Shown one piece after another: positions 2,464-50,212 of a DNA stretch of 50,820 nucleotides (positions are counted from its first letter, which is position 1; every line of letters begins with the position of its first letter). Both the position numbers and the translations under genes were made by a program. Source of the DNA: Saprospira grandis DSM 2844 (GTDB taxonomy: Bacteria > Bacteroidota > Bacteroidia > Chitinophagales > Saprospiraceae); contig NZ_JH719942.1 in NCBI RefSeq assembly GCF_000275825.1, positions 1,124,988-1,175,807 on the forward strand, written 5' to 3'. The notes below the pieces were generated by a model. That model did not search any database, was not told the origin of the DNA, and saw only the letters and a program-made list of their open reading frames with translations.

Positions 2464-2583
2464 TTTTTGGGGCCTCCCGCCTTTGGCGGGCGCTACGTTT
2501 CGGGGCTCGCTGTTCGCTCGGCCCTGCGCGGGCTGCGCCCGCTTGGTCTGGCCTTCGGCCACCCCTGCACATCGCTAGGCCAA
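2464..2583 (+). repeat. Family A repeat, copy 2 (forward, CATCGCTAGGCC subtype)
   Basis: ttttggggcc...cgctacgtttcggggctcgctgttcgctcggccc...ggtctggccttcggccacc...catcgctaggcc. Confidence 0.8.
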
Positions 2584-2584
2584 A

Positions 2585-2623
2585 AAAGAGAGCCCCCAGC
2601 TAGCTGCGCTGGCTGGGGGCTCT
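2585..2623 (-). terminator. Rho-independent terminator downstream of the PfkB kinase gene
   Basis: Minus-strand hairpin gagcccccagccagcgcagctagctgggggctc followed by tcttttttt. It lies immediately 3' of the stop at 2642. Confidence 0.6.
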
Positions 2624-2641
2624 TGTGTAATAGAGCAAAGT

Positions 2642-3556
2642 CTAGAGCTTCACTTCCATCAAGTTTTGGAAAGCTTTCTTACGAGCGTCCAAAGCAGCCT
2701 CATCAATTTCTTTGAGGCGGTTAGGACCAAAAGCTTCTACACAGAAAGAAGCGACTACAGAACCGTAGACCAAAGCACGCTTCATGCTCTCCAAAGAGTG
2801 GTCGTCTTCTTGGGCCAAGTAGCCCATAAAGCCACCGGCAAAGCTATCACCAGCTCCAGTAGGATCAAATACTTCTTCCAAAGGCAAAGCAGGAACAAAG
2901 AAAGTAGATTCGCCATGGAACAACAAAGCGCCATGCTCCCCCTTCTTAATTACCAAATATTTTGGGCCCATCTCACGGATTACACGAGCCGCCTTTACTA
3001 GAGAGTACTCCCCAGACAACTGACGAGCTTCCTCATCATTGATAATTAGAATATCTACCTGCTTCAATACCACCTTGAGCTCCTGCATGGCAATATCCAT
3101 CCAGAAGTTCATGGTATCCATAGCAACCAATTTAGGGCGCTTTTCTAGTTGCTCCAACACCTGCATTTGTACAGCAGGAGCAAAGTTCCCCAACAAAAGG
3201 TATTCAGGGTTTTTATAGCCTTCGGGCAATTTGGGGCTATAGTTCTCCAATACATTGAGCTCTGTGGCCAAAGTATCCCGAGCATTCATATTCATGTGAT
3301 AGCGACCGGCCCAAAAGAAAGACTTTTCGCCTTCGCGCTTCTCCAATCCATCCAAATTAACGCCTCTGGCTTCCAAAGCAGCCAACTCCTCTGCAGGAAA
3401 ATCCTCGCCAATTACAGATAGCAATTGCAAGTCTTTGTGAAAATGAGAAGCCGCCCAAGCAATATAAGTACCAGCACCACCAATGATGCGGTCTGCCTTG
3501 CCAAAAGGAGTTTCAATGGTATCAAAGGCAACAGTGCCCAATGTCAATAAGCTCAT
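2642..3556 (-). CDS. PfkB-family carbohydrate/nucleoside kinase (ribokinase-like)
   Basis: Ribokinase-fold signatures are present (GGAGTYIAWAAS; the C-terminal DPTGAGDSFAGGF motif). The start is chosen as MSLLTLG; the alternative upstream ATG at 3583 adds 9 aa. Confidence 0.8.
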   Translation of the reverse strand: MSLLTLGTVAFDTIETPFGKADRIIGGAGTYIAWAASHFHKDLQLLSVIGEDFPAEELAALEARGVNLDGLEKREGEKSFFWAGRYHMNMNARDTLATELNVLENYSPKLPEGYKNPEYLLLGNFAPAVQMQVLEQLEKRPKLVAMDTMNFWMDIAMQELKVVLKQVDILIINDEEARQLSGEYSLVKAARVIREMGPKYLVIKKGEHGALLFHGESTFFVPALPLEEVFDPTGAGDSFAGGFMGYLAQEDDHSLESMKRALVYGSVVASFCVEAFGPNRLKEIDEAALDARKKAFQNLMEVKL

Positions 3557-3753
3557 AGTAAAATTGATTTTTTTTCTGGGCACAAAAAAACAGAAAAAGG
3601 CCGAAAAAACGGCAGCCTAGCCCCCTTTTTTGTCTAGCCCAAAAGAAACTCCATTTTTTTTATGTCTTTTTTTGCAAAAAGTTTGGCAAAACCAAAAAGG
3701 GCTCCTATATTTGCATACGCAAAGAGGGAACAGCCCTCTAAAAGCAAACACAC

Positions 3754-3827
3754 GCTTCCATAGCTCAGTTGGTTAGAGCATCTGACTGTTAATCAGAGGG
3801 TCCCTGGTTCGAGCCCAGGTGGGAGCG
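3754..3827 (+). tRNA. tRNA-Asn (GTT)
   Basis: Cloverleaf read by eye: acceptor gcttcca/tgggagc, D-arm gctc-agttggtta-gagc, anticodon loop ctGTTaa, T-arm cctgg-ttcgagc-ccagg. CCA is not encoded. Confidence 0.85.
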
Positions 3828-3852
3828 CTACTCATACACAACAATATATTTT

Positions 3853-3926
3853 GCTTCCATAGCTCAGTTGGTTAGAGCATCTGACTGTTAATCAGAGGGT
3901 CCCTGGTTCGAGCCCAGGTGGGAGCG
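3853..3926 (+). tRNA. tRNA-Asn (GTT), identical second copy
   Basis: Exact duplicate of the 3754-3827 sequence, 25 nt downstream. Confidence 0.85.
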
Positions 3927-3930
3927 CAAA

Positions 3931-3963
3931 AGCCCGACTTCATTTGAAGTTGGGCTTTTTTTA
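3931..3963 (+). terminator. Rho-independent terminator after the tRNA-Asn pair
   Basis: Hairpin agcccgacttca/tgaagttgggct followed by ttttttt. It can serve as a bidirectional terminator with the convergent minus-strand gene that ends at 3961. Confidence 0.7.
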
Positions 3964-4809
3964 TTCCTGCAAGCGCTTTAAGGCCTTAGGCCGCAAGCGC
4001 CACAGCTTGGCCCCCGATAAAATCGAGCGCTCTGTGGTTAAATACAACTGTGCATCTGGCCCAAAACAAAGGGCCTCTTGCTGCCGCAAAGGTAAACCTA
4101 TGCGCTGCTCTAATGGTCCAAAACGGCCTCCCTCAAAAGAAAAGCGGTACAAATGCCGCATACTTAATAAATAAAGGCTTTGCTCTTCTTCTCGATAAGC
4201 CGCAGCCGTAACCGATTGCCATAAACCGCCTCTTTTTAGCTCTACGCTATCGCAGAGGCGGGCCGCCTGCGGCCCCGCCTCTTTGCCCAAGGCATAGAGA
4301 TAATGCCAGCCATCATGCGGACGATGCCTATTTTTAGTCACTATATACAAGCTATCGCCTTGGGCAAAAAGGGCCTCGGCATCAAAGTGGCGCTGCCAAG
4401 AGGCGGCGGGAAAAGCAATTTGCTCTGGATAATAAAAGCTAATTTTTTGAGGCTGAATTTCTTTTTGGTCCAAAGCCGTTTTGGGAAAAAAATAGATGCA
4501 AAGATCTTGGCGCTGATTTAAATTATTGCCCATATCGGCCAAATAGATATATGCGCTATCAGTACAAAGTGCCTCCCAGTCTATATTGGGCGCTAAAATG
4601 TTGATGCTGCGCTGCAAACGCCCCCTTTGGTCCAACTCATAGAGCAAAGGAGAATTTCCACCATCATTATGGGTATAAAAACTGCCGCTGCGGTCTGCCC
4701 AAAGTCCAGAACTTTCCGAAATAGGCAGGCGGCCCAAAGAGCTCAAGCGACAAGCCGATAAACTTAGGCAAAGGAGCAAAATACCAATACAGCTTTTCAT
4801 GGACAGCAA
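3961..4809 (-). CDS. Hypothetical lipoprotein/secreted protein (possible beta-propeller, SdiA-regulated/YjiK-like)
   Basis: 282 aa. The N-terminal signal peptide carries a lipobox-like Cys (LLLCLSLSAC). There is no catalytic motif. The family assignment is a weak impression based only on an ESSGL motif. Confidence 0.55.
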   Translation of the reverse strand: MLSMKSCIGILLLCLSLSACRLSSLGRLPISESSGLWADRSGSFYTHNDGGNSPLLYELDQRGRLQRSINILAPNIDWEALCTDSAYIYLADMGNNLNQRQDLCIYFFPKTALDQKEIQPQKISFYYPEQIAFPAASWQRHFDAEALFAQGDSLYIVTKNRHRPHDGWHYLYALGKEAGPQAARLCDSVELKRGGLWQSVTAAAYREEEQSLYLLSMRHLYRFSFEGGRFGPLEQRIGLPLRQQEALCFGPDAQLYLTTERSILSGAKLWRLRPKALKRLQE

Positions 4810-4817
4810 TTTTTGCG

Positions 4818-5060
4818 GTGGACAGGCGGCGAAGCCGCCGCAGGCCTAGCGATGCGGAGGGGTGGCCGAAGGCCAGACCGAGCCGCTCTAAGCGGCGAAG
4901 GGCCGAGCAGACCTGCGAGCCCCATAGCGTAGCGCCTGCCGAAGGCAGGAGGCCCCAAAACAGCAGCGAGCCCCATAGCGACAACAAGCCCTTTAGGGCG
5001 CAGTTCGACGACCGCAGGGAGTAACCGCCGACGAGCGAAGCGAGGCAGGAGGCCCCAAAT
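4818..5060 (-). repeat. Family A repeat, copy 3 (reverse; composite/dimeric with optional module X)
   Basis: There are two ggaggccccaaa ends, at 4950-4964 and 5047-5060. It contains gacaacaagccctttagggcgcagttcgacgaccgcagggagtaacc (module X). Confidence 0.8.
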
Positions 5061-5097
5061 AAAAAGGCATCTAGCCGAAGCCAAATGCCTTTATCTC

Positions 5098-6240
5098 TTA
5101 ATCGACAATCATGGTATTTTTATCCAATTCTTGTTGACGAATATTTTCGGGAAGTTCTAAATACTCATATTCTTGATTGCGCAATTGCGGGCGGAAACCG
5201 GCCTCACGGATGGCGTCTTGAATCCCTTGGGCTGTAAATCGGAAGGCCGCACCGGCGGCAGAAACCACATTTTCCTCAATCATGATGCTTCCAAAATCGT
5301 TGGCGCCGGCATGTAGGCAAGCCTGGGCCACCTCCTTCCCAACGGTCAGCCAAGAAGCCTGAATATTGGTCACATTGGGCAACATAATGCGGCTGAGGGC
5401 AATCATGCGGATATATTCATCGCCGCTCACATCTCGGCGTTTGATTTTCAGGCGAGACAAAATCGTGTCTTCATCCATAAACGGCCAGGGAATAAAGGCC
5501 AAAAAGCCCTTAGCCTCCTTGGGTTTTTCGTTTTGCACCTCTCGGAGCCAGACCAAATGCTCCATGCGTTCATAATTGGTTTCGATATGGCCAAACATCA
5601 TGGTTCCGCTGGTGGTCAGATGCAATTGATGGGCGGCCCGCATCACGTCTAGCCACTCTTGGCCCCCGCATTTTCCGCGAGAAATACGGCGACGCACCCG
5701 ATCGTTGAGAATTTCGGCACCTGCCCCAGGCAAAGAATCTAGGCCTGCTTCTTTGAGGCGGCTGAGCACCTCGGTATGAGAAAGCTGATCAATTTTGGCG
5801 ATATGCGCAATTTCGGGTGGCCCCAAAGCGTGTAATTTGAGGTTAGGGTAAAGCGATTTGAGCTCCTTAAACAGATCACAATAGTAATCGATGCCCAAAT
5901 CGGGATGGTGTCCGCCTTGCAAAAGCAACTGCTGGCCGCCATACTCCATCAGCTCGTCAATTTTGCGCTTGTAGGTATCAATAGAGGTAATATAAGACTC
6001 CTCATGGCCGGGGCGGCGGAAGAAATTACAGAACTTACAGTTGGCAATACAGACATTGGTGGTATTCGAGTTGCGGTCGATAATCCAAGTCACCACATCA
6101 TTAGGGACATGATGTTGGCGCAGGCGGTTGCCCACATACATCAACTCGGCGGTGCTTGCCTCTTCGAGCAAAAAAACACCCTCCTCAATACTGAGCTCTT
6201 CTAGTTGCAGGGCTCTATGCAATAAATCGCTTACATTCAT
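5098..6240 (-). CDS. Radical SAM enzyme, MqnC/MqnE/CofH family (futalosine-pathway-type)
   Basis: The CxxxCxxC motif (CIANCKFC) and overall similarity are consistent with cyclic dehypoxanthine-futalosine / aminofutalosine synthases. The start is set at MNVSDLL (6240) rather than the upstream ATG at 6306. Confidence 0.7.
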   Translation of the reverse strand: MNVSDLLHRALQLEELSIEEGVFLLEEASTAELMYVGNRLRQHHVPNDVVTWIIDRNSNTTNVCIANCKFCNFFRRPGHEESYITSIDTYKRKIDELMEYGGQQLLLQGGHHPDLGIDYYCDLFKELKSLYPNLKLHALGPPEIAHIAKIDQLSHTEVLSRLKEAGLDSLPGAGAEILNDRVRRRISRGKCGGQEWLDVMRAAHQLHLTTSGTMMFGHIETNYERMEHLVWLREVQNEKPKEAKGFLAFIPWPFMDEDTILSRLKIKRRDVSGDEYIRMIALSRIMLPNVTNIQASWLTVGKEVAQACLHAGANDFGSIMIEENVVSAAGAAFRFTAQGIQDAIREAGFRPQLRNQEYEYLELPENIRQQELDKNTMIVD

Positions 6241-6336
6241 AGCTTTTTGTTTCCAGATTCTCTCATTTAACAGCCCTTTGGGGCTATGGTTGCCGCAAAG
6301 GTACAACTTTTTTCATCTGTTATTGAAAGTAGGAAT

Positions 6337-6485
6337 CTTTTGGGGCTTCCCCTGCGGCCTTCGGCCTTGGGTCGGGCTCTGTCGCAGCTCGCAAGTTTGC
6401 TCGGCCCTGCAGCGCTTTCAGCGCTTTGGTCTGGCCCTTCGGGCCCCTGCTATCCATCCCTAAGCCGAGTCGCTTCGCTCCTTTT
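6337..6485 (+). repeat. Family A repeat, copy 4 (forward, CATCCCTAAGCC subtype)
   Basis: ttttggggcttcccc...gggtcgggctctgtcgcagctcgcaagtttgctcggccc...ggtctggccc. Confidence 0.8.
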
Positions 6486-6510
6486 TATCGCTTGGACCAA
6501 AGCGGTAGGG

Positions 6511-6552
6511 GCAAAAAAAAGTGAGCAGCTACTTTCCCCAAAGTAGCTGCTC
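6511..6552 (-). terminator. Rho-independent terminator downstream of the 1056-aa gene
   Basis: Minus strand: gagcagctactttggggaaagtagctgctc followed by acttttttttg. Confidence 0.6.
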
Positions 6553-6692
6553 TGTAATCCCCATGATTTACCCCAAACTTAATTGAAGTTAGAGCAAGAA
6601 TTTCCTTTTGCTCTATTGCAAATTTAAGGGGGCAAACAATTAGTTTTCTAGGCCATTTAGGCAAAAGAAAAAATTAGGTATTTTACTTAGGC

Positions 6693-9600
6693 TTAATTTT
6701 GCTCTAATTTTTGGAGTTCGGCCACTACTTCCATGGCCATATTGTCTAGTTCGGGTTGCTGTGCCTCTACGGCATTGCGTTCTTCTAGCCAAGCAAAGTA
6801 TTTCTCCTCAAAAGCCTTCATCTCGTTAATATCCAAATAATAGAAATTGATATTGATATGCGCTGGGGCATTGATAGTAAAGACGGCATGCATAAGATCT
6901 TGGAAATCTTCATTTTGAAAACGAGAGGGCCAAGCGGGTAAAATGATGCTCATATCAAGGGAGTAGAAATCATGGCGAACGTCTAGGTTGGGGCGTTCCT
7001 CCAAAAAGAACTGAATATTGCTTTGCAAGGGAATAGCTCCTGATTTAAAGCTATAGACATAGGCCACAATATCGTCGATTTGTTCTTTGGCTCCTTCTTG
7101 GGTATAAAAGATTTCTGGGCAGCGGGCAATTTTGCGGTTATACTCCTGCAAAACGACCTGATAGCTTTCGCCATCCTCTAGGGTTTCAATAATGAAATTA
7201 TCTTTTTTACTGGCCAACAAATCTAGTTGGTTACTGAGGTTGCGTTGCTCATCAAAAGCGCCAAATTCATAGCTTTCGAGCAAGGGACGATCTTGGTCAT
7301 TCACGAGGCGGAAAGCGTGGCGGTCTTGGGCCTGTGGGCGAAGCAAAATGTGCTCTACCACATGCATTCCCTCTGTTTGGTGGTTAATGCGGGCAAAAAA
7401 CTTAATCAGCTTTTCGAGCTCCACCTGAGCGGCCAAAATACTGCTGTACTCTCTAATTTTCACGCAGCCCAAATCGAGATTCCCCTTATAGTAAACACTA
7501 TAGATTTCCTCCCCATCACGCTCTTCCAAAAGGGCCAGATAGTTATAGCTAAAAATACCGTTGGCCAAAAGGTCTTGTATGAGCTCGTCCATATCCTGCG
7601 CTCTAAAGATAAACTTAGAGCGGTAGTCTAGGGTTTCGGGCAGACGCTCAGGAGCGGGACCAGGATCCTCTCCCTTCTCAATTTTCTCCAAACGCTCCAA
7701 TTCTACATCTAGGTCTATGTAGCCCTCGGGCAACATAGGCGACTCTAGCTGAATCAGGTCATGGAAATTATCTACCTCTTCCAAATGAGTTTCTTCATCA
7801 AAAATACGGACCAAAGATTCATTGCCTCCTTGGTTGAGGTTAAGCAACAAACACACCCGACGTTCTAGGCCAGCAACCTCCGTTTCTAAGAGCTCCAACA
7901 TCTTTTTGGTAAACTTGAGGTTGGTTTCTGCTATCGCTTCGGTCAAGGTTTCGGGCAAATCTAGATCTTTGAGCATCTTTTTGGTCTGCTCCTTGGCCAC
8001 ATCCGCCGGATCACGGTAATTGAGGGCCATAGAAAAGGCATCTCGCTGATGCTGACGAAGCGGGTAGTTCTCCCGCAGCTGCTTATACTGCTGGCGAATC
8101 AAATCTCTTTCTGCCTCTTCTTTATATTGCTTAATGAGCGGCTCAAAGAGCTCGGCCCATTCTAGCTCTTGCTCATAAATGACATTATAGAGAGCCATGT
8201 AGTTAAATCCACGGCTACGGTTTCGACTAATGTCGACATAGTTGCGCAAAAACTCCAATTTGGCATTGACCAATTCGTGCTCTGGGCTTTTGGCCTCTCC
8301 TTCCGACATATCATAGCCCACATACTGGCTTACCTTCAACAAAAAGTCAGTGGTAAAACGCTCGCCAAAACGAGCCAGTAAATGGTCCAATAAACGGTTG
8401 CGACGCTCCACAAAAGGATCAAATTCCGCTACCGTTTCTTCTAGCTTTTTCAAACGAGCCTCATTGTCCTTGCCCTTCAAGATGTATTGCATCTCTGGCA
8501 TGTTCTCTGGCAACTGAGAAAAATAACTGCGGTCCAAATCACTATCCAATGAAAAGAATTTCTTCACATTGCCCAATTGGGCCAAGTAGTTGGCCATCAT
8601 CTGCTCAAAAAAGGACAAATACCCTCTGAGCTGCTTTATCATGCCCAAACGCTCCCGAGTCGGACGCACACTATTGGGCAATCCAAAAGGACTCAACCCA
8701 TAGGTCACCGGAAAGGTATTCTGTACCGAATAATAACGCTTGATGTCATCCTCCTTCAATACCGAGGGATAATCCTTCTCATTATAGAGCATCTTCATCT
8801 GATAGCCCTTCTTATAACGAGCATAAAGCGAATACAACAACTGACTAGCCGTATTGAGGTCCAAATCATAGTTCAAACTCCCCCGCTGAAAACGAATCGG
8901 ATAAGCATCGGTTTTCCAACGCGCATCAATAGTGTCCATATCCAAAACAGGATAGGTCTTTTCCGCAATCCGAATCACATCGCCCTCTACAGGAAACCCA
9001 TCTTTCTCTACCCGAAAATAATTGATGCGGCGAACCCCCTCAATATCCGAGATGATTTCAATAATCTTAGAAATATAAACCTCCCGCTTCATCGCCTTGA
9101 GGTCCTCTTTCTTGATGATGCCATGCACCGGCACCGGCCCATCAAAAATCTCTTCAATGGCATAGCCCTCTTCCAAAAGTTCATCTATAGTATGGTACTG
9201 AATAGATGGCGTGAGATGCTCCTCCAACTTAAAGAGAATTTCAGCCAATACTTCCTCCGCCACCACATCCGAACTAATGTCCAAATCAGTATAAATAATA
9301 ATCTTGTCTACATCCAAGACCTCAATAGCCTCCAAATCCTCACAAAGATTTCGATGCGCAGCAAATAAAGCATACACCTCTCGCTTAATCGCCTGCAAAC
9401 GCTGCGGCTGACGAGCACTATCACTCACCTGCAACAAAATCCGATACAAGCCCTTAATGCCTTGCAAATGGTCCCGCACCGGCTCCACCCAAGCATTCTT
9501 CACCCCATTCACCCGATCAATAATCAAGCGGCGATAATCCTCAATGGTTACCGGATTCGTCGGCAAAATCTCCGAAGCATCATAAAAGGTGTTGTTCAAA

Positions 9601-9851
9601 GCCTGCCGACGGCCCTTCCCTCTAGCATTCAATAAATCCTGTATGCTAAAATCCGTGCGAAAGCCCAAATCGGCCAAAGCATAACAAAGTTGCTCCAATA
9701 TCGTCACCCCAGGATCATGGGTGTTGTAATCGGTCCAAACTTTACCCGATAGTTCTTGCACCATCTGCAAGCCCTCTTCCTTCAAAAAGAAGAAGTCCAT
9801 ACTCTTGTGCGGCGGGGTTTCGCGGAAAATCTGAATTGGTTTCTGCGCCAT
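6693..9851 (-). CDS. Large conserved hypothetical protein (about 1050 aa), function unknown
   Basis: Long uninterrupted ORF with coding-like composition. It has no P-loop, no signal peptide and no catalytic motif I can recognise. The start is taken at MAQKPIQ (9851). Confidence 0.7.
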   Translation of the reverse strand: MAQKPIQIFRETPPHKSMDFFFLKEEGLQMVQELSGKVWTDYNTHDPGVTILEQLCYALADLGFRTDFSIQDLLNARGKGRRQALNNTFYDASEILPTNPVTIEDYRRLIIDRVNGVKNAWVEPVRDHLQGIKGLYRILLQVSDSARQPQRLQAIKREVYALFAAHRNLCEDLEAIEVLDVDKIIIYTDLDISSDVVAEEVLAEILFKLEEHLTPSIQYHTIDELLEEGYAIEEIFDGPVPVHGIIKKEDLKAMKREVYISKIIEIISDIEGVRRINYFRVEKDGFPVEGDVIRIAEKTYPVLDMDTIDARWKTDAYPIRFQRGSLNYDLDLNTASQLLYSLYARYKKGYQMKMLYNEKDYPSVLKEDDIKRYYSVQNTFPVTYGLSPFGLPNSVRPTRERLGMIKQLRGYLSFFEQMMANYLAQLGNVKKFFSLDSDLDRSYFSQLPENMPEMQYILKGKDNEARLKKLEETVAEFDPFVERRNRLLDHLLARFGERFTTDFLLKVSQYVGYDMSEGEAKSPEHELVNAKLEFLRNYVDISRNRSRGFNYMALYNVIYEQELEWAELFEPLIKQYKEEAERDLIRQQYKQLRENYPLRQHQRDAFSMALNYRDPADVAKEQTKKMLKDLDLPETLTEAIAETNLKFTKKMLELLETEVAGLERRVCLLLNLNQGGNESLVRIFDEETHLEEVDNFHDLIQLESPMLPEGYIDLDVELERLEKIEKGEDPGPAPERLPETLDYRSKFIFRAQDMDELIQDLLANGIFSYNYLALLEERDGEEIYSVYYKGNLDLGCVKIREYSSILAAQVELEKLIKFFARINHQTEGMHVVEHILLRPQAQDRHAFRLVNDQDRPLLESYEFGAFDEQRNLSNQLDLLASKKDNFIIETLEDGESYQVVLQEYNRKIARCPEIFYTQEGAKEQIDDIVAYVYSFKSGAIPLQSNIQFFLEERPNLDVRHDFYSLDMSIILPAWPSRFQNEDFQDLMHAVFTINAPAHININFYYLDINEMKAFEEKYFAWLEERNAVEAQQPELDNMAMEVVAELQKLEQN

Positions 9852-9933
9852 AGGTCTTATCAATCTAAACAGGGCTCTGCCCTTGGGGTTCTGTTCCGTT
9901 CTAAAATATCTTGCGGTAGTGTGTGCTTGTCTC

Positions 9934-10116
9934 CTATTTGTCTAGCTGCTGGGGAGGGGGCTCTGCATGCATCTGGGCATTGGCCTGCTCATGAATCTTT
10001 CCAATCAACTCATAAACCTCATTAAATGGCCGCTGGCCCAAGGCCTGCAATATCTTATTGATTTCTTGCATGTCTAGCTGCAATAGCAGGGGTTTCTCTT
10101 CTTTTGTCTTGCCCAT
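9934..10116 (-). CDS. Small hypothetical protein (about 60-82 aa) directly upstream of the 1056-aa gene
   Basis: Small ORF on the same strand, 70 nt upstream of the large gene, so possibly co-transcribed. The start is ambiguous (10116 or 10182). There are no recognisable motifs. Confidence 0.35.
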   Translation of the reverse strand: MGKTKEEKPLLLQLDMQEINKILQALGQRPFNEVYELIGKIHEQANAQMHAEPPPQQLDK

Positions 10117-10220
10117 CAGTCTCTTTTTTTGTAAAAGCCTAGCGAATTTAAGAAAAAAAGCGCTTTGTGCCAATTTATACAAATTTGATTACAGATATAC
10201 GGATTCTTTTCACCTTTTTA

Positions 10221-10390
10221 TTTTTTTGGGGCTGCCCCGCCCTGCAGGCGGGTCGGGCTGTCTCAGGGCTCGCAAGCCTGCTCGGCCCTTCGCAAAAAAG
10301 CTGCGCTTTTTTGCTCGGTCTGGCCCTGCGGGCCACCCTTGCCCATCCCTCAGCCATTAAAAGCTGGCTGCGCCAGCCCCGCCCCAACAA
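10221..10390 (+). repeat. Family A repeat, copy 5 (forward, CATCCCTCAGCC subtype)
   Basis: tttttttggggctgccccgccctgcaggcgggtcgggctg...ctcgcaagcctgctcggccc...ggtctggccctgcgggccacc. Confidence 0.8.
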
Positions 10391-10391
10391 A

Positions 10392-10430
10392 AAAAAGCCG
10401 CAGTTGAATACTCAACTGCGGCTTTTTGCG
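10392..10430. terminator. Bidirectional rho-independent terminator
   Basis: Hairpin gccgcagttga-atact-caactgcggc flanked by an A-run on one side and a T-run on the other. It lies 3' of the minus-strand Fe-S protein gene, whose stop is at 10445. Confidence 0.65.
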
Positions 10431-10444
10431 CCAATCCACTCCGC

Positions 10445-11818
10445 TTATTCTGCATTGTTGATCTCCATGGCCCATTTGTCCCGGTCATCCGGAGAAAAGG
10501 CCCAAGGCGCTCCATTGTTTTCTATGGTGTTAAACATACCGTTCCACTCTTCCGGAGAATCAGATTGCTCCAAAATGAGGTTGCGACGCAACTCAACAAT
10601 GATATCTAAAGGGTTAATCAAAACCGGACAAGCCTCTACACAAGCATTACAAGAGGTGCAAGCCCGCAATTCTTCTGTACTGATGTAGTCAAATAGGCTT
10701 TTACCATCGTCATAGTTCTCTACCGTCAATTTAGAGGTCTCCGATTTCTGCTCCTCATTGATGAACTCGGTCTTGTTGAGGTCCAAATTATGCCCCACCT
10801 CATCAGCACGATCCCGAACATCCATCATGATTTTACGTGGCGATAGTTTCTTGCCCGTCAAGTTGGCCGGACACATAGAAGTACAACGACCACATTCCGT
10901 ACAAGTATATGCACTCATGATCTGCTGACGATTAAGGTCAAAAACATCACTTACGCCAAATTTGGGAATCTCCTCCGATACAGGCGCATCAAAGGCAGCA
11001 TTGGGGTCCATCATAGAAGCTACTTCTTCCTGAACCTCTTTCATGTTGGCCATCTCCCCCTTTTTGTTCAATCTGGCCCAAAAAGTATTCGGAAAGGCAA
11101 AAATGATGTGCAAATGCTTGGAATAAGGCAAATAACCTAAAAAGGCAAAGACGATCAAAATGTGGCCCCACCAACCAATGCGCTCCAAAACATGTAGGGT
11201 TTCATTGCTTGCCCCCATTTCTTCCCAAAATGGAGAAATTAACCCACTGACCAAAAAGCCATATTCATTGCGATGAATGGCCATGTCTGTACTGTTCATC
11301 AAAAAGATGCAGAAAACCAAGATGATCTCCGCAAAGAGAATGAGGTTTGCATCCAATTTGGGCCAACCGTTCATCTCGGACTTAACAAAACGGGGCAGCT
11401 TGAGCAAGTTACGTCTGGCCAAAAAGGCAAAGGTTGCCACCAAAGCCATTACCGACAAGACCTCAATGAAGCTCACCAAGAAAGTATAAAAGCCACGGAG
11501 AAAGTCGCTGCCTTCCCACCAAGCCCAAAATAAACGATGCTGGCCCGTCAAGCCATCAATGACAATCTCAATGAGCTCGATTTGCGTAACTAAGAAAGCA
11601 AGGTATACACAAAGGTGCAGACCCGCCGCCAAAGGCCGCTTAAACATTTTTTGCTGGCCCAAGGCAACCATAATGGTATTGCGCCAACGCTCTGGACTAG
11701 GCTTGGCTTCCTCATCTACTTTACCCAGCTGTATATTGCGAACCACAAAGCTGTATTTTTTGTAGGAAAAGGCCGCCGTCCCTAGCAGTACTAAGGCAAA
11801 AAGGATAGGTCCTATCAT
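10445..11818 (-). CDS. Membrane-anchored (Fe-S)-binding protein (N-terminal polytopic membrane domain plus 2x[4Fe-4S] ferredoxin-like domain)
   Basis: There are several predicted TM helices in the first 240 aa or so. Two CxxCxxCxxxCP motifs are present (CTECGRCTSMCP; CTSCNACVEACP). Confidence 0.7.
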   Translation of the reverse strand: MIGPILFALVLLGTAAFSYKKYSFVVRNIQLGKVDEEAKPSPERWRNTIMVALGQQKMFKRPLAAGLHLCVYLAFLVTQIELIEIVIDGLTGQHRLFWAWWEGSDFLRGFYTFLVSFIEVLSVMALVATFAFLARRNLLKLPRFVKSEMNGWPKLDANLILFAEIILVFCIFLMNSTDMAIHRNEYGFLVSGLISPFWEEMGASNETLHVLERIGWWGHILIVFAFLGYLPYSKHLHIIFAFPNTFWARLNKKGEMANMKEVQEEVASMMDPNAAFDAPVSEEIPKFGVSDVFDLNRQQIMSAYTCTECGRCTSMCPANLTGKKLSPRKIMMDVRDRADEVGHNLDLNKTEFINEEQKSETSKLTVENYDDGKSLFDYISTEELRACTSCNACVEACPVLINPLDIIVELRRNLILEQSDSPEEWNGMFNTIENNGAPWAFSPDDRDKWAMEINNAE

Positions 11819-12019
11819 CTTAAACTATTATTTTAATTGATTAATGGTGTCAGTGATTTAGAGACTGCAGCTAAAACCAAATCTTGACTTTAGACAGTTT
11901 GCTCCAAAGACAAAATTAAATTTTTTATACTAATTTTATAATTCCCCTCTCAGAACTTTCTTCCGATTTGCTTATTTCTCTCCTCTAGCTTAACCAAAAG
12001 CGCCCTTTCTCCCCCCCTT

Positions 12020-12215
12020 GTGGCCCCGCCGTATTGGCCCAGCGCTGCGAAGGGGTGGCGCAAAGCGCCAGACCCAGGCGCTGAAAGCGCCGCAGGGCCG
12101 AGCAGACCTGCGAGCCCCGACAACAAGGACTTTAGTCCGCAGTTCGACGACCGAAGGGAGTAACCATAGCGGCGGCCGACCTAGGCAAAGCCTAGCCGGC
12201 CGCGGGCCCCAAAAC
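12020..12215 (-). repeat. Family A repeat, copy 6 (reverse; with module X)
   Basis: ggccgagcagacctgcgagccccgacaacaaggactttagtccgcagttcgacgaccgaagggagtaacc...gggccccaaaacc. It ends 10 nt before the protease start codon. Confidence 0.8.
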
Positions 12216-12224
12216 CATCTAATT

Positions 12225-14411
12225 ATGAAAGCGATTTATTTCCTTATTTTTCTGCTGCCTAGCGGCCTCTATGCTCAAAATACGAAGCTAAATATTGACC
12301 TTTTTCGCCTTTGGCAAGAGGGCGGAACCCAAAATGTGGAGCTGATCGTCCAGGGCGAGCCGCAAGCGATAAAAGAACTGGCCCAACAAACCGATAGCCA
12401 GTATAAATATGGCCTAAATGATTTGGCCGCCCTCTCTATTCCCTTGCAAAAACTGCCCATTTGGTGGGAACATCCCGCTATTCTGGGCCTGCAAGCCCAG
12501 CGCCTTAGCCCCCAGTATTTTTTTGAACAAGATAGCCTGATGCTGGCCAATAATAACGCCCGAGCCGCTCATGAAGGCTGGGGATTACCCCAATCTTTTA
12601 AGGGCCAAGGCGTGCTTGTCGGCATTATTGACGACGGCTACGAATGGCAGCATCCCGATTTCTGGCAGCCCAATGATAGCAGCAGCCGATTTCTCAGTAT
12701 TTGGGACCAAGATTATTTTTCGCCCAACTTTTTTATGGGCCAATATGGCTATGGCAGCTACTGGAATAAAGCCCAAATTGATTCGGGCCTGATCGCTCAC
12801 CCCCCAGGCGAACATGGCTCGCATGTGCTAGGTACCGCCGCCGGCAATGGCCTAGCCGCCCAAAAATATAAGGGCATTGCCCCCAAAGCCGAGCTGTTGG
12901 CCGTGGCCCTGAGCGAAGATGGACAGTTTTTGCCCCGCTTTGTGGATGCCGTCCACCATATTTTTCAAGAAGCTAAGCGATTGGGAAAAGCCTGCGCCAT
13001 TAACTCTAGTGTGGGGGCCTATTATGGCTCCCATGATGGTCAAGACTTGTATACGGCTATGATTGAAGCGATGCTAGAGGAGGAAAACGGTCGGGCTTTG
13101 ATTCAAGCAGGCGGCAATGCGCGGCAGGCAAAAATGCACTGGCAAAAGGCCCAAGCAGATAGCGGCTGTCTGGCCTTTTTGCCCCTCAATGGCCAACTAT
13201 TTCGCAGCTCGGCCTTTATTGATAGCAGCGACTGGCCACAGCTGCATTGGCAATTTGAGCTCAAGGGGAGTCAGGGACAAAGGCTGGTTCTTAGTCGCCC
13301 TTTTTCCCCTGCCGATCTGCCGCCGCATAGCCCCCTACCTGCCCAAAGAATAGACACTATATATATAGGTCCACAAGGGGCCCTGATTTTAGTACAATAT
13401 TTGGCCGAATGGCAGGGCTGCCTAGAGTGGTCCTTTCAGCTGCAGGGAAACAATTTGCAAAATCAGCAGCTTTTTTTGCATTGGAGCGGGGCGGGCAAGG
13501 TGGATATTTGGAGCCATGAGCGCAATATGGGCCTTTCGGATATTATTCTGCAGGCCAATGTTCCTCATTACATTGCGCCCGACAACCAACAAACCCTAGC
13601 CGCTTATTGGACCTGCTCGCCCAAGGTCATCACGGTGGCGGCCTACCAAAACCGAGACCAACTGCAGAATTATGCTGGCGATACGGTTTCTTTGGCCTAT
13701 GCGGGCTTTCCGATCTTTGGCATTGCCGATTTTTCTAGCCTCGGCCCTAGTCGAACGGGTCTACAAAAGCCCGATTTAACAGCCCCCGGGGGGCAGGTCC
13801 TTTCGGCAGGCAGCCTGGCCGCCCTACAAAACGCCAGAGCCAACAACTCCCCTTATTTGGACCAAGGCGGTTGGCATGTTTCGGCTAAAGGGACCTCTAT
13901 GGCGGCGCCTATGGTTACGGGGGCCGCTGCCCTCTATTTTCAATGCCAACCGCAGGCCAATTGGGCCGAACTCAAGGCCGCCCTGCTACAATCGGCCCGC
14001 AAAGATGCTTGGGTATATAGTGCTGGCGCTCCGCCCAATATAGATTGGGGAGCGGGTAAGTTAGATGTGCAGGCGCTTTTGCAAAACTGCCTAAAGCCTG
14101 GCTGTCTAGACAGCAACGCCCTCAACTTTATGCCCAACGCTTGGGTAGAAGACGGCTCTTGCTACTACCCTAGTTCCACAAATTATCTGGCCGAGCAAGG
14201 GCCAACGCTCTGGCCCAATCCCTTTAATGGCCAACTACAAATAGAATTGCCTCAGGCGGGCCAGCTTTGCTTTTATAATGTTTTGGGCCAAGAAATGGCT
14301 CGCTATATTTTGCCTGCTGGTCCAAAAACAATTTCTACCGAAGATTGGCCCAAGGGTAGCTACATCTGGAGATGGGAAGATGGACCAAGCGGAAAGCTCA
14401 TTAAGCAGTAA
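12225..14411 (+). CDS. Subtilisin-like S8 serine peptidase with T9SS C-terminal sorting domain
   Basis: Asp/His/Ser catalytic motifs are present (GIIDDGYEW; HGSHVLGTAAG; GTSMAAPMVTGAAAL). The signal peptide is MKAIYFLIFLLPSGLYAQ. The C-terminal region (about 70 aa) is of Por_Secre_tail type. The track ORF start at 12018 runs through a repeat element, so the start is set at 12225. Confidence 0.85.
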   Translation: MKAIYFLIFLLPSGLYAQNTKLNIDLFRLWQEGGTQNVELIVQGEPQAIKELAQQTDSQYKYGLNDLAALSIPLQKLPIWWEHPAILGLQAQRLSPQYFFEQDSLMLANNNARAAHEGWGLPQSFKGQGVLVGIIDDGYEWQHPDFWQPNDSSSRFLSIWDQDYFSPNFFMGQYGYGSYWNKAQIDSGLIAHPPGEHGSHVLGTAAGNGLAAQKYKGIAPKAELLAVALSEDGQFLPRFVDAVHHIFQEAKRLGKACAINSSVGAYYGSHDGQDLYTAMIEAMLEEENGRALIQAGGNARQAKMHWQKAQADSGCLAFLPLNGQLFRSSAFIDSSDWPQLHWQFELKGSQGQRLVLSRPFSPADLPPHSPLPAQRIDTIYIGPQGALILVQYLAEWQGCLEWSFQLQGNNLQNQQLFLHWSGAGKVDIWSHERNMGLSDIILQANVPHYIAPDNQQTLAAYWTCSPKVITVAAYQNRDQLQNYAGDTVSLAYAGFPIFGIADFSSLGPSRTGLQKPDLTAPGGQVLSAGSLAALQNARANNSPYLDQGGWHVSAKGTSMAAPMVTGAAALYFQCQPQANWAELKAALLQSARKDAWVYSAGAPPNIDWGAGKLDVQALLQNCLKPGCLDSNALNFMPNAWVEDGSCYYPSSTNYLAEQGPTLWPNPFNGQLQIELPQAGQLCFYNVLGQEMARYILPAGPKTISTEDWPKGSYIWRWEDGPSGKLIKQ

Positions 14412-14486
14412 ACAACGCTCAAAAAGGGGCATAAAAAAGGCCGCAGTTCCTTTTTAGGAACTGCGGCCAAGGTCTTGGCCAAGGAT

Positions 14487-15765: not shown

Positions 15766-15770
15766 GAGGT

Positions 15771-16462: not shown

Positions 16463-16617
16463 GCAGGGCCGAAGGCCCGCAAAGGAGCGCAGCGACGCGG
16501 CTGAGGGATGGACAAGGGGGGCCGCAGGCCAGACCAAGGCGGCAAAGCCGCCGCAGGGCCGAGCAGACCTGCGAGCCCTGAAACAGCCCGACCCGCCTGA
16601 AAGGCGGGGCAGCCCCA
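16463..16617 (-). repeat. Family A repeat, copy 8 (reverse, CATCCCTCAGCC subtype)
   Basis: Reverse complement of the consensus. It ends gggcggggcagccccaacaaaaaaa, 17 nt before the Smr gene start. Confidence 0.85.
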
Positions 16618-16633
16618 ACAAAAAAATAAAAAG

Positions 16634-21832: not shown

Positions 21833-21990
21833 TTTTTTGGGGCTGCCCCTTCGCTTCGCTGCGGGTCGGGCCATTTCGCAGCTCGCAGGTCTGCTCGGCC
21901 CTTCGGCGCTTGCAGCGCCTCGGTCTGCCGCCTGCGGCGGCCCTGCTACAGCCCCTCAGCCGATAGGCTGGGGCTCCGCCCCAGCCCCAT
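21833..21990 (+). repeat. Family A repeat, copy 9 (forward)
   Basis: tttttttggggctgcccc...gggtcgggccatttcgcagctcgcaggtctgctcggccc...ggtctgccgcctgcggcggccc. Confidence 0.8.
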
Positions 21991-37043: not shown

Positions 37044-37045
37044 GA

Positions 37046-37190
37046 TTTGGGGCCTCCGCCTCGCTGCGCTCGTCGGCGCTACGCTTTGGGGCTCGCAGGT
37101 CTGCTCGGCCCTTCGCCAGCAAGCTGGCTCGGTCTGGCCTAACGGCCACCCCACCGCATCGCTAGGCCAGGCTGGCCTTCGGCCAGCCTT
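37046..37190 (+). repeat. Family A repeat, copy 15 (forward, CATCGCTAGGCC subtype)
   Basis: ttggggcctccgcc...cgctacgctttggggctcgcaggtctgctcggccc...ggtctggcctaacggccacc...catcgctaggccaggctggccttcggccagcc. Confidence 0.8.
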
Positions 37191-38788: not shown

Positions 38789-38857
38789 TATAAGGCCTTG
38801 CTCCTTAGTAGAATATTAGATGATCCCCTCCTCGGAGGGGATTTGAGCCTGTTTAAA

Positions 38858-39050: not shown

Positions 39051-39137
39051 CTATTGGCCAAATCCCAACAAGCTAAAGGCCCAAATTTTATTCTAATACA
39101 CAAAATCCTGAACAGTCCCAGGGATTTTTTTTGTGCC

Positions 39138-41258: not shown

Positions 41259-41420
41259 GGACAGGCGGCGAAGCCGCCGCAAAGGAGCGCAGCGACGCGG
41301 CTGAGGGATGGAGAGGGTGGCCCGCAGGGCCAGACCGAAGCGCTTTAGCGCTGAAGGGCCGAGCAGACCTGCGAGCCCGGAACAGCCCGACCCGCCCGCA
41401 GGGCGGGGCAGCCCCAAAAA
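41259..41420 (-). repeat. Family A repeat, copy 16 (reverse, CATCCCTCAGCC subtype)
   Basis: gacaggcggcgaagccgccgc...gctgagggatgg...gggccgagcagacctgcgagcccgg...gggcggggcagccccaaaaaaa. Confidence 0.85.
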
Positions 41421-47840: not shown

Positions 47841-47971
47841 AATTATGGAAGTTTCCCTTCCGGGACGGTTTAAAAATGTGAATAAATTAATGTTTGCATT
47901 TCCTAAAAAAGAAAAATGCTTGCAAAAGTAAGCTTTTGGGGCTTCTTTTACAAGCTATTATAGGTTTATTT

Positions 47972-49912
47972 TTACTCCTCTTCCCAAAAGGCTTCTAGGG
48001 CCAATTCGGCGGCTTCCCATTTTTCCATGGCTTCTTCTGTAGCCGCTTCATTTTCTTGATGTTTGGCTAAGGCTTTTTCATAATTGGGGGTTCCAAATTT
48101 GCTGCTATCGCCCAAGGTTTTTTCCAGTTTATTTTTCTCTTCTTCTAGTCGTTGCAGTTGTCGTTCTGCATTCTGGATATTTCTTTTGAGTTGTTTGAGG
48201 GCTTGCTTGACCGCTGGGTCGTTTTCATCTTTTTTGGGCTTGGCTTTTTTGCTGCTGCCGCTGTTGTTGGCCGTTTTGCCCAAAGAAACATCTCGCAGGC
48301 TGCCGTATTGGCGTTTTTTAAGGAAGTATTCAGAGTCGCCCAAATAGGTTTTGAGCTTCTTTTGGTCAAATTCAATAACTTTATCGGTCAAGCTATCCAA
48401 AAAGTCTCTATCGTGAGAAACCACCACCAAGGTCCCATCATAATGCAAAAGGGCCTCTTTCAAAATGGCCTTAGAAAGCATATCGAGGTGGTTGGTGGGT
48501 TCATCCAGTACCAATAAGTTGATGGGGTGCAAAAGCAAGCAGGCCATAGCTAGGCGGGCCCGTTCTCCTCCCGATAAAACCGATACTTTTTTGTCTACAT
48601 CCTCCCCCTTAAAGAGAAAGGAGCCCAAAATAGCCCGTAGTCGGGGACGCAGCTCGAAGGGGGCATCTTGTTCTATAGTTTCTAAAACGGTCTTTTTGGG
48701 GTCTAGGGCTTCGGCCTGATTCTGTGCATAGTAGCCCAAATGGACATTATGGCCCAATTCGCTTGTTCCGCCGGTGGGCAGCTGTTGGCCCACCATTATT
48801 TTCACTAAGGTCGATTTTCCCTCTCCGTTTTTGCCCATAAAGGCTAGGCGTTCGCCTCGGATGATGGTCAAATCTACCTCATTCAAGATCAAATTATCGC
48901 CATAGCTTTTGCTCAGCCCCTTAACAATGGCTACTCTTTCGCCAGAGCGAGGTGCTGGCGGAAACTCCAAACGCATCCGGCTGCTATCGCCATCTTCTAG
49001 CTCGATCCGCTGCATGCGGTCCAATTCCTTGATGAGCGATTGGGCCATTTTGGCCTTATTGGCCTTGGCTCTAAACTTATCGACTAGGGCTTCTTTGCGG
49101 GCAATTTCTTTTTGCTGCTGCTGAAAAGCCGACTGCATTTGGGCCTGCCGCTCTTCTCGCAATTCTAAATATCGAGAGTAGTTGGCTTTATAATCATGCA
49201 CTTTGCCCAACTCAATCTCAATGGTGCGCTGCGTCACCTTGTCCAAAAAGGCTTTATCGTGAGAAATTACAATCACGGCCCCTTCATAAGGCTGTAAAAA
49301 CTGCTCGAGCCAAATGATAGATTCAATATCCAAATGGTTGGTGGGCTCATCCAAAAGCAAAAGCTGTGGCCGCTGCAAGAGGATTTTGGCCAACTCGATC
49401 CGCATTTGCCAGCCCCCACTAAAAGTAGTGGTTTGTCGATCAAAATCACTGACCGAAAAGCCCAAGCCCATCAAGATTTTCTCGGCTTCGGCTTGCAAGC
49501 TTTGGCCACCAATCAAGGCCAGACGGTCGTTTAATTCCGATAATTCATGAATCAGCTCCATATAGCCATCGCTGCTATAATCGGTCCGCTCCTCCATTTC
49601 TTGCTGAATCTCTTCTAGGCGTTTTTCCATGGCCTGCGCCTTGGCAAAAGCCGTCATGGCCTCTTCCAACACCGTTTTGCCCTTGGGCAAGAGCATATCT
49701 TGATGCAAAAACCCGATGCTGAGGTCTTTAGGAGCGGCAATATTGCCTTGCATGGGCGCAATTTGTCCCGCAATAATCTTAAGCATAGTCGATTTCCCCG
49801 CCCCATTTCGGCCCGTCAGACCAATGCGGTCTTTTTCTCGCACCGTAAAGGAAACCTGGTCCAATAATCGGCGATCGCCATATTGTACATATATATTCTG
49901 AAGGTTCAGCAT
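47972..49912 (-). CDS. ABC-F family ATPase (tandem ABC domains, no TMD; Uup/YheS/EttA-like)
   Basis: Two sets of Walker A (GRNGAGKST; GKNGEGKST), signature (LSGGWQMR; LSGGERAR) and Walker B motifs, separated by a linker. There is a C-terminal coiled-coil. Confidence 0.9.
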   Translation of the reverse strand: MLNLQNIYVQYGDRRLLDQVSFTVREKDRIGLTGRNGAGKSTMLKIIAGQIAPMQGNIAAPKDLSIGFLHQDMLLPKGKTVLEEAMTAFAKAQAMEKRLEEIQQEMEERTDYSSDGYMELIHELSELNDRLALIGGQSLQAEAEKILMGLGFSVSDFDRQTTTFSGGWQMRIELAKILLQRPQLLLLDEPTNHLDIESIIWLEQFLQPYEGAVIVISHDKAFLDKVTQRTIEIELGKVHDYKANYSRYLELREERQAQMQSAFQQQQKEIARKEALVDKFRAKANKAKMAQSLIKELDRMQRIELEDGDSSRMRLEFPPAPRSGERVAIVKGLSKSYGDNLILNEVDLTIIRGERLAFMGKNGEGKSTLVKIMVGQQLPTGGTSELGHNVHLGYYAQNQAEALDPKKTVLETIEQDAPFELRPRLRAILGSFLFKGEDVDKKVSVLSGGERARLAMACLLLHPINLLVLDEPTNHLDMLSKAILKEALLHYDGTLVVVSHDRDFLDSLTDKVIEFDQKKLKTYLGDSEYFLKKRQYGSLRDVSLGKTANNSGSSKKAKPKKDENDPAVKQALKQLKRNIQNAERQLQRLEEEKNKLEKTLGDSSKFGTPNYEKALAKHQENEAATEEAMEKWEAAELALEAFWEEE

Positions 49913-49965
49913 GATTATTTTCTTTTAGTCGCCGCAAAAATAGCCTTTTTCTTTGAAATAATAAT

Positions 49966-50212
49966 TTTTTGGGGCCTCCGCTGCGGCCTGCGGCCTTGCG
50001 GCGGTTACTCCCTTTGGTCGTCGAACTGCGCCCTAAAGGGCTTGTTGTCGCTTTGCAGCTCGCTGAGGTTTTGGGGCCTCCGCTGCGGCCTGCGGCCTTG
50101 CGGCGCTACGTTTCGCAGCTCGCTACTCGCTCGGCCCTGCGGCCTGACGGCCTGGGTCTGCGGCTGCGCCGCACTGCTGCACATCGCTAGGCCGAATGGC
50201 CTTCGGCCATTT
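49966..50212 (+). repeat. Family A repeat, copy 19 (forward dimer; first unit carries module X, second is the CATCGCTAGGCC subtype)
   Basis: Two ttttggggcctccgctgcggcctgcggccttgcggcg heads, at about 49968 and 50079. The first is followed by the complement of module X (ggttactccctttggtcgtcgaactgcgccctaaagggcttgttgtcg). Confidence 0.8.

Follow-up and report, generated by a model that had tools for sequence, protein, structure and literature searches.

Repetitive extragenic palindromic (REP) sequences and bacterial interspersed mosaic elements (BIMEs) are the closest known kind of the repeat described here, and the accepted mechanism for REPs is recognition of a hairpin in single-stranded DNA. 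REPs alternate in orientation within BIMEs, whose build is mosaic (PMC2817692), and the class 3 elements carry a CnGA foot (PMC6006769). Analysis of a 50,820-nt stretch of the chromosome of Saprospira grandis DSM 2844 (contig NZ_JH719942.1, positions 1,124,988 to 1,175,807), referred to below as the window, revealed 19 copies of a folded element which belongs to the REP/BIME/MITE (miniature inverted-repeat transposable element) type of structured interspersed repeat with a putative protein partner. The copies in the window and those on the plasmid of S. grandis Lewin (NC_016936.1, L029/L030, 54.9 kb), sampled as an independent replicon, are all intergenic and, like REP/BIME, are GC-rich extragenic palindromes. 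The element conserves the sequence of its core and the ability of its arms to pair, not the sequences of the arms.

The strand reading 5'-GGCYK-A-...-CCCCAAAA-3' is called the R strand; its complement begins with TTTTGGGG, and that end is called the T-end. On the R strand the unit of about 120 nt folds so that six helices surround an unpaired core of invariant sequence, AGGGCCGAGC..GCGAG. Helix P1 (5 bp) joins both termini, P2 has seven positions with one fixed purine-purine mismatch and is followed by a 3x3 internal loop, and P3 (4 bp) closes a junction in which the linker AGACC separates hairpins P4 and P5 and P5 is followed by the core, whose 22-27 unpaired nt are laid out as GMAGGGCCGAGC-(AGACCUG or GAGUAG/GAACAG)-CGAG. 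Hairpin P6 sits between the 3' strands of P2 and P1, and an extra hairpin, P0, lies just 5' of P1 in most copies. Type B copies carry GCGUAGCG (GUAG) directly 5' of P6, while type A copies and those of Lewinellaceae carry CCGA, and either motif is also part of P2.

The repeats resemble REP/BIME in their very high copy number, modular mosaic build and stable positions between strains, in pairing that survives sequence change and in alternating orientation; the recognition that we favour for them parallels that of REPs. REP hairpins carry a conserved GT[AG]G or an equivalent at their 5' foot, and in type B copies GTAG lies 2 nt 5' of P6. The REP/BIME kind, with its RAYT (TnpA-REP, HUH Y1) transposases, includes the 'atypical secondary structures' flanking the Bacteroidetes RAYT subclass 2.6. 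Unlike REP/BIME, the Saprospira unit has six helices, three of them long-range, and a long invariant unpaired core, its alternation extends over kilobases across genes and not within one cluster or tens of bases, type A copies have CCGA for GTAG, and no RAYT gene flanked by copies, the link that defines REP/BIME, has been tied to the element in the DNA scanned. The REPINs (inverted REP doublets) of Pseudomonas resemble it in the inversion of their units and in a proposed mobile form that is a folded single strand, but their partners lie about 70 nt apart in one long hairpin, whereas the Saprospira partners lie 0.2-5 kb apart and bracket genes.

The structured MITE-like repeats BOX (pneumococcal), Correia/NEMIS (Neisseria) and ERIC (enterobacterial) are likewise intergenic, 100-150 nt long and predicted to fold stably, and they are often co-transcribed; the modular A-B-C build of pneumococcal BOX is similar to the optional parts P0, P5 and a 45-nt module X of the Saprospira element. 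In contrast to these families, the Saprospira element has no usual terminal inverted repeats or target duplication, its cores are unpaired and conserved while its stems are hypervariable, and strict alternation is not known to have been reported for them. Integron attC sites are of similar size, also keep structure over sequence and are active as folded, strand-specific single-stranded DNA. An identity with attC was rejected, since the alignment contains no R''/L''-L'/R' cores (RYYYAAC / GTTRRRY), there is no integrase, and attC sites are co-oriented in cassette arrays whereas the Saprospira copies alternate beside housekeeping genes. Features of IS200/IS605 palindrome-associated transposable elements were also compared: a T-run always abuts one end and P6 starts 9-10 nt inside; no TnpA was seen, nor the orientation bias expected for insertion into the lagging-strand template.

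Preservation of pairing

Pairing was analysed in 18 window copies and in a larger set of 40 copies from the window and the Lewin plasmid, with 500 shuffles each. In the 18 copies 92.4% of the cells were paired versus 71.7% after shuffling, and 109 cells showed double-sided change versus 33.9 (reached in 0/500 shuffles), slid partners giving at most 19. The 40 copies gave 93.3% versus 72.9% paired cells and 251 versus 84.3 cells of double-sided change (0/500), with at most 28 for slid partners. Double-sided change was found in 22/33 pairs in both copy sets with a contribution from all six helices, of which the long-range ones weigh most because conserved sequence fixes their alignment. A sequence-only reading of the same DNA had claimed that the stems differ between copies yet stay complementary, and this was confirmed far beyond the shuffled and slid controls in both sets; since pairing is kept beyond these controls, something preserves it. 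One-sided (G·U) states were absent from about 600 cells of P3, P4 and P5 in the 40 copies.

The ten hairpins quoted in that reading are all present, 0-5 nt from the positions given. Its hairpin 1, hairpin 2 and terminal hairpin correspond to P6, P5 and P4 and are real, while P1-P3, long-range helices with 55-105 nt between their arms, and P0 had gone unnoticed. The family does not begin at 2464, as had been proposed, but at base 1, the copy at 1-124 having been missed.

Minimum-energy folding of single R strands gave the six-helix form with RNA and DNA parameters alike, and RNAalifold applied to the 40 copies recovered P1, P3, P4, P5 and P6 without structure input. The P1 variants found in Saprospira are GGCUG/CAGCC, GGCUU/AAGCC, GGCCU/AGGCC and GGCCC/GGGCC; those of P3 are GCAG/CUGC, GGGG/CCCC, AGGG/CCCU and GCGG/CCGC, and which P3 variant a copy carries does not depend on its P1/P2 subtype. 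P1 and P2 contain ten U·G pairs on the R strand versus two whose G·U would form on its complement, mostly in one column, and fixed positions of P2 hold 35 mismatches of the G·A or A·G type. The hairpins form palindromes of odd length whose loops are mostly of 3 nt (TTC/GAA, TGC/GCA, TTT/AAA) and not UUCG or GNRA tetraloops; the tetraloop-like reading given before is wrong. In the 40 copies the P4 loops are closed by C-G and include GAA (16), GCA (9) and AAA (5); on the R strand the P4 loop is purine-rich in 30 copies and pyrimidine-rich in three.

Copies in the window

The window is a housekeeping segment of the chromosome with uvrC, a SpoU methylase gene, mqnC, rpsA, an ABC-F ATPase gene, tsaB and genes of type-9-secretion cargo proteins. 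Its GC content of about 47% is close to the 46.6% published for S. grandis (PMC10508125). Its L20 protein is identical in three complete Saprospira genomes, with which the window DNA shares 86-96% identity.

The ten-base core GCTCGGCCCT occurs 19 times exactly in the window and 29 times with at most one mismatch, versus 5.0 +/- 2.5 in shuffles, and every core occurrence lies inside an intergenic element of 117-179 nt. In MAFFT alignments of all copies the hairpins fell out of register; hence a covariance model was seeded with five copies and a hand-written structure. Run with filters off, it returned exactly the same 19 window copies, each on one strand only. Module X (ACAACAAG-hairpin-CGCAGTTCGACGACCNNNGGGAGTAAC) is nested in four copies, at 4981-5025, 12120-12164, 35280-35324 and 50004-50048. 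The copies, with the strand that carries the R sequence and the covariance-model score where available, are as follows.

1..124, + strand: e1, type A, P1 GGCUG/CAGCC; 78.2 bits; six-helix RNA and DNA minimum-energy folds; CCCCAAAA end 36 nt upstream of the uvrC start
2465..2581, - strand: e2, type B, P1 GGCCU/AGGCC; 123.3 bits; SpoU-methylase start (2451) 14 nt downstream of the CCCCAAAA end
4843..4960, + strand: e3, type B, the reference copy; 138.1 bits; all six helices in the DNA fold; P1 4843-4847/4950-4954, P2 4849-4855/4927-4933, P3 4859-4862/4920-4923; hairpins P4 4863-4875, P5 4882-4896 and P6 4935-4949, extra 5' hairpin P0 4825-4839; unpaired core 4897-4919; tail CCAAAA 4955-4960
4961..5060, + strand: partial copy in tandem, corresponding to the 3' half of the long type and containing module X, from reading of the sequence and a regular expression
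6338..6466, - strand: e4, type A, P1 GGCUU/AAGCC (fifth pair G-C to U-A); 63 bits
10224..10355, - strand: e5, type A, P5 a 10-bp A/T-containing hairpin at 10292-10314; 75.5 bits
12036..12214, + strand: e6, long variant, P1 GGCCC/GGGCC, module X between P3 and P2
15610..15736, - strand: e7, type A; 72.6 bits; also folded
16499..16622, + strand: e8, type A; 83.5 bits; CCCCAA.. end 12 nt from the start codon at 16634
21835..21961, - strand: e9, type A, P2 degenerate; 59.3 bits
23153..23279, + strand: e10, type B; 98.1 bits
26760..26877, - strand: e11, P2 variant GGGGCCU/AGGGCCC; 124.5 bits
27299..27415, + strand: e12, type B; 101.3 bits
32538..32662, - strand: e13, type A, core variant GAGUAG; 56 bits
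35195..35358, + strand: e14, long variant with module X, from the covariance model; a single difference from e19 in the 5' 85 nt (read by eye)
37045..37168, - strand: e15, type B; 97.6 bits; T-end 4 nt past the stop of the gene at 36630-37043
41299..41419, + strand: e16, type A, P3 down to 3 bp with one base lost per strand; 70.2 bits
44670..44796, - strand: e17, type B; 104.1 bits
45773..45889, + strand: e18, type B, in the rpsA-tsaB spacer; 123.6 bits
49965..50068, - strand: tandem partial long-type copy with module X, from reading of the sequence and a regular expression
50069..50193, - strand: e19, type B; 67.9 bits

The density, 19 copies in 50.8 kb or about one per 2.7 kb, is equalled on the Lewin plasmid (23 copies in 54.9 kb). 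If it held genome-wide there would be about 1,600 copies making up roughly 5% of the S. grandis genome, a figure which is an extrapolation from two replicons and not a count, and the species would be among the most repeat-laden bacterial genomes. Short-read contigs of the same species with genes of the window (L017-L019, L021, L028) break off inside conserved parts of the element, for example at ...GGCGGGCGCT, and the contigs retrieved through exact matches to the UvrC and ABC-F proteins were all short and terminated at the repeats; contigs that end in the element are consistent with a high genome-wide copy number that breaks assemblies.

Variation between strains and relatives

Each of the seven chromosomal sites in the shared region holds its copy, with unchanged orientation, in all S. 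grandis strains that cover it. On the CCB-QB6 plasmid (L031, NZ_CP116809.1), of which the first 50 kb were compared, all 20 copies detected match Lewin copies in order and strand. No presence/absence polymorphism was found at the 27 compared sites. The orthologous copies have nearly identical flanks and interiors that differ by blocks, mostly whole replaced hairpins, blocks spanning both arms of a helix, or loop flips in which the same stem carries AAA or TTT, as in CCGCAGC-AAA-GCUGCGG versus CCGCAGC-UUU-GCUGCGG and in GCGGCCAGC-AAA/TTT-GCTGGCCGC. In one strain P3, P4, P5 and the core variant of e10 have been replaced while P6 and the flanks are unchanged, and in e9 two strains join P5 of one allele to P6 of another, a reticulate combination. 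The same hairpins recur in different copies. A clean stepwise case was found in the e10 orthologs, where P2 changed from C-G to U-A and the rest stayed as it was. Module X is absent from the e6 ortholog in four other strains and therefore behaves as a separate insertable unit.

These comparisons showed that the diversity of the stems is spread by short-tract exchange anchored in the cores, by flipping of hairpins and loops and by nested 45-nt insertion. As both arms usually move together in short conversion tracts, the independent compensatory events are far fewer than the copy number suggests, and much of the covariation is therefore passed on blockwise, through conversion or template switching. 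The view that mutations arise in pairs and preserve the helix, which the hairpins alone had suggested, is thus not upheld: orthologs differ mostly by swapped hairpins or blocks and flipped loops, and the lack of G·U in P3-P5 is unusual for stepwise RNA evolution. Selection on structure, argued from the same hairpins, is partly supported: the long-range helices, the retention of sites and the conservation across families are difficult to account for without constraint. The covariation of the local hairpins is largely block-transferred and could be aided by palindrome-templated repair.

The copies stay put across strains that are 5-14% diverged, and one site is common to another genus. L020, a relative of 40% GC whose rpsA is 84% identical, carries a copy at the e18 site in the rpsA-tsaB spacer (L020:11999-12133) in the same orientation; its stems are AT-rich, P5 is missing, P1 is GGCGU/GUGCC with two wobble pairs and P3 is GGAG/CUCC. 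The 22 kb around rpsA in Phaeodactylibacter and one further relative contained no copies, so the family is patchy or too diverged there for the model. A pattern scan of one genome per species gave, among the matches listed, mostly metagenome-assembled genomes (MAGs) of Lewinellaceae and Saprospiraceae. Copies from Lewinellaceae MAGs keep the core and the architecture and have P1 GCGUG/CACGC, and P2 of the relatives is GGUGCCU/AGGGACC or GGGGCGU/ACGGCCC. Among 72,556 plasmids scanned only three Saprospira plasmids matched, in 18-20 places each. The core pattern gave 0 hits in viral contigs, and a phage origin is therefore unsupported.

A search of the window against Rfam 15 at gathering score returned only two tRNA-Asn genes and no element. 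With E up to 5, the sole hit overlapping an element in positions 1-17000 (8 copies) was a weak match of the Giardia U2 family to e1 (26-152, 24.8 bits versus a gathering score of 100, E 0.045), which was treated as chance. No description of the element was found in the literature on Saprospira repeats or hairpins or on REPIN/RAYT in Bacteroidetes, and Saprospira is unmentioned in the supplements of the RAYT survey; the element is thus described neither in Rfam nor in the literature searched.

Orientation of the copies

The R strands follow the series + - + - - + - + - + - + - + - + - + - along the window, so that 17 of the 18 neighbouring pairs are inverted (p = 7e-5). On the Lewin plasmid 22/23 neighbouring pairs are inverted on the circle, and 21/22 when it is read as a linear molecule (p = 5e-6); as an odd number of copies on a circle makes one non-inverted pair unavoidable, 22/23 is the maximum possible. 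The first 50 kb of the plasmid of a second Saprospira species, about 87% identical, have the same map with the same exception. With filters off and E up to 10, the search revealed no degenerate copy that would mend the sole exception in the window (e4/e5). The alternation also runs through the co-directional pur and paa clusters and bears no relation to the gene strand. Of the copies flanked by co-directional genes, 14 have the R strand in sense and 14 in antisense orientation. A 6.3-kb strain indel takes out two copies, so parity is kept. Inverted neighbours are spaced 0.2-5 kb apart with genes in between. Close direct repeats may be purged under active exchange, or inverted pairs may be functionally required. 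We found no described precedent for near-perfect alternation at kilobase scale on two replicons and conserved between species, and through it one of two questions becomes accessible to tests, the influence of ectopic recombination on the architecture of repeats or a new way of marking gene boundaries.

The two ends of the element differ in their distance to genes. In the pur and paa clusters the T-end (CCCCAAAA/TTTTGGGG) lies 1-4 nt past a stop or 10-38 nt before a start. Such docking was seen at e2, e8, e9, e15 and e16 and at L029 10829, 12664, 15109, 16573, 33622, 37183 and 41688, and one T-end overlaps the stop. The T-end has a median distance of 36 nt from the closest coding sequence, and the opposite end, which usually lies behind extra hairpins, one of 154 nt. 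Eleven of the 19 copies lie 12-107 nt upstream of a start codon on the same strand. By hand classification neighbours share the P1 subtype in 9/18 pairs, with about 7.7 expected; direct pairing between copies is therefore without specific support.

DNA-level and RNA readings

On balance the data lean towards the hairpins being parts of a REP/BIME-like structured interspersed repeat that acts mainly at the level of DNA. In our reading this repeat is recognised in a folded single-stranded form, and its co-transcribed copies may have an RNA role as well. The d(C-GNA-G) loop is a classic, very stable DNA mini-hairpin, and the GAA/GCA/AAA triloops closed by C-G, the 14:14 orientation and the lack of G·U in P3-P5 are indications of an element at the DNA level. 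When DNA parameters were used for the energies, the R strand was more stable than its complement in 19/19 copies (p = 1.3e-4), and with RNA parameters in 12/19, which is not significant. The U·G pairs, the fixed G·A pairs and the purine-loop bias of P4 speak for some single-stranded form that is specific to one strand. Pairing would be kept because a protein reads the element in a folded single-stranded or extruded form, the likeliest readers being an HUH/Y1 (RAYT-type) enzyme that once spread the element or a host DNA-binding factor, with the conserved core as its putative sequence-specific site. Palindrome-templated repair (template switching) may help to hold the local stems perfectly Watson-Crick, and the alternation could stem from the purging of close direct repeats under active ectopic exchange or from a need for inverted pairs.

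DNA hairpins recognised by an enzyme, one of the two possibilities raised by the sequence-only reading, are thus the best fit to the data, but no RAYT/HUH motif was found in the scanned DNA, and several observations weigh against a DNA-level repeat of this kind. No open reading frame with an HUH/Y1 motif was detected in a six-frame scan of the window and 21 loci, and the annotation of the Lewin plasmid contains no transposase or RAYT. Neither an empty site nor a target duplication nor a recent insertion was seen, which leaves mobility unsupported. Six helices and a conserved unpaired core make the fold more complex than that of any REP described and give it the look of a functional RNA, P1 and P2 hold G·U and fixed G·A pairs that are workable on one strand only, the copies inside the pur and paa clusters are probably transcribed, and the conservation of a site across genera suggests a host function rather than a selfish element.

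The other possibility raised, a family of structured RNAs, would have the R-strand transcript function as a cis element in untranslated or intercistronic regions or as a small RNA, with its helices under selection for RNA folding. Six helices around a conserved unpaired core are typical of functional RNAs, the U·G and G·A pairs of P1/P2 (with two P1 wobbles in the L020 ortholog) are valid on the R strand only, and R-strand RNA folds of four copies reached z-scores of -1.7 to -3.4 against shuffles compared with +0.5 to -1.7 for the opposite strand. In addition, the 11 of 19 copies upstream of same-strand starts, the location of others within the pur/paa clusters and the same site filled in another genus would suit such an RNA. 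We nevertheless hold it to be rather unlikely, as it is hard to reconcile with the 14:14 orientation and the strict alternation: half of the copies are antisense to the direction of flanking transcription, and alternation persists even in co-directional clusters. No conserved promoter or terminator lies beside the copies, the absence of G·U from P3-P5 and triloops in place of UNCG or GNRA do not suit an RNA, and there is neither an overall strand preference with RNA parameters nor an Rfam match. Strong covariation of helices is by itself no proof of a functional RNA, because block conversion and palindrome-templated repair mimic the signal, which matters for the discovery of noncoding RNAs by covariation. 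The extreme case, in which such events alone keep the stems paired with no selection on structure, accounts for loop flips on identical stems, for whole-module swaps between orthologs and for near-perfect Watson-Crick local stems without one-sided G·U in P4 and P5; it is improbable, since it leaves unexplained the long-range P1-P3 (covarying, with fixed mismatches and with other sequences in other families), intact copies at fixed sites over 5-14% divergence and in another genus, and the strand bias of the P4 purine loops.

The alternation invites an explanation in which inverted neighbours jointly bracket transcription units, either in RNA, where the 5' R copy would pair with the complementary copy at the 3' side for processing or stabilisation, or in DNA, as oriented boundaries with bound protein. 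Inversion of 17/18 window pairs and 22/23 pairs of the plasmid circle, its persistence within the pur and paa clusters, T-ends close to stops and starts, and a strain-specific indel that takes an even number of copies all agree with it; subtype sharing of neighbours at chance level (hand count), variable hairpins that break complementarity between copies, and avoidance of direct repeats, which could yield alternation without any function, make it doubtful. Its wider form, which we offer as a tentative and unlikely proposal, is that the elements are more than selfish repeats and almost every Saprospira transcription unit is bracketed by an inverted structured pair with one fixed end docked at a stop or start. 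In this genome-wide punctuation system the two copies would act together, by 5'/3' pairing and processing of RNA or as DNA boundaries that are oriented and bound by protein, and the alternation would be its footprint. A classical MITE derived from an insertion sequence with a DDE transposase, in which P1 and P2 are the terminal inverted repeats, would account for the size, the intergenic location and the 5-13 nt of terminal complementarity. It is very improbable given that none of the 19 copies has a target-site duplication, one flank being always a T-run and the other variable or a hairpin, that only 5 bp (P1) pair contiguously at the ends, where such elements have terminal inverted repeats of at least 10 bp, that the terminal complementarity is broken by P6 and tolerates wobble and G·A, and that neither presence/absence polymorphism at 27 sites nor a parent insertion sequence was seen.

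Other repeats and features

The gene at 27473-32491 on the - strand codes for a 1672-aa protein with a type-9-secretion C-terminal sorting domain and about five tandem 264-nt (88-aa) repeats at 28837-30112, which, judging by a GATxxx codon pattern that recurs in the coding strand, seem to be rich in Asp. This gene and the copies e12 and e13 are absent from strains L022 and L024. An origin of the 6.3-kb strain indel next to e11 by crossover between direct copies was considered and rejected, as its junctions lie outside the cores of the elements.

A second repeat system consists of a unit of about 150 nt at 26936-27088 and 38845-38997 (90% identity), each followed by a tandem array, of three 21-nt units at 27093-27156 and of eight 42-nt units at 39134-39480, respectively. 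The spacer between the S8 peptidase gene and alr holds only a 75-nt terminator in the window, and in other strains (L022-L025) it holds arrays of units of about 40-45 nt, strain-specific in sequence and about 540 nt in all. The Lewin plasmid has four homologous AT-rich spacers of about 230-320 nt with iteron-like repeats (L029 158-386, 5428-5659 and 46295-46615; L030 1352-1642), each flanked by an inverted pair of elements with the T-ends outward; these spacers are candidates for sites of plasmid maintenance or for a composite repeat of larger size. The two tRNA-Asn (GTT) genes lie in tandem at 3754-3828 and 3853-3927, with starts 99 nt apart and equal covariance-model score and alignment.

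Small hairpin families were also found beside the elements, namely CTGTGGGT-loop-ACCCACAG, ATGAGGG-loop-CCCTCAT, ATCGC-TTC-GCGAT and GGAGCG-MAG-CGAC, at L022 18840-18960, in spacers of L029 and at 6467-6481, 16478-16498, 32663-32677 and 41279-41298 of the window. As these families recur, the spacers of Saprospira seem to be assembled from several hairpin modules.

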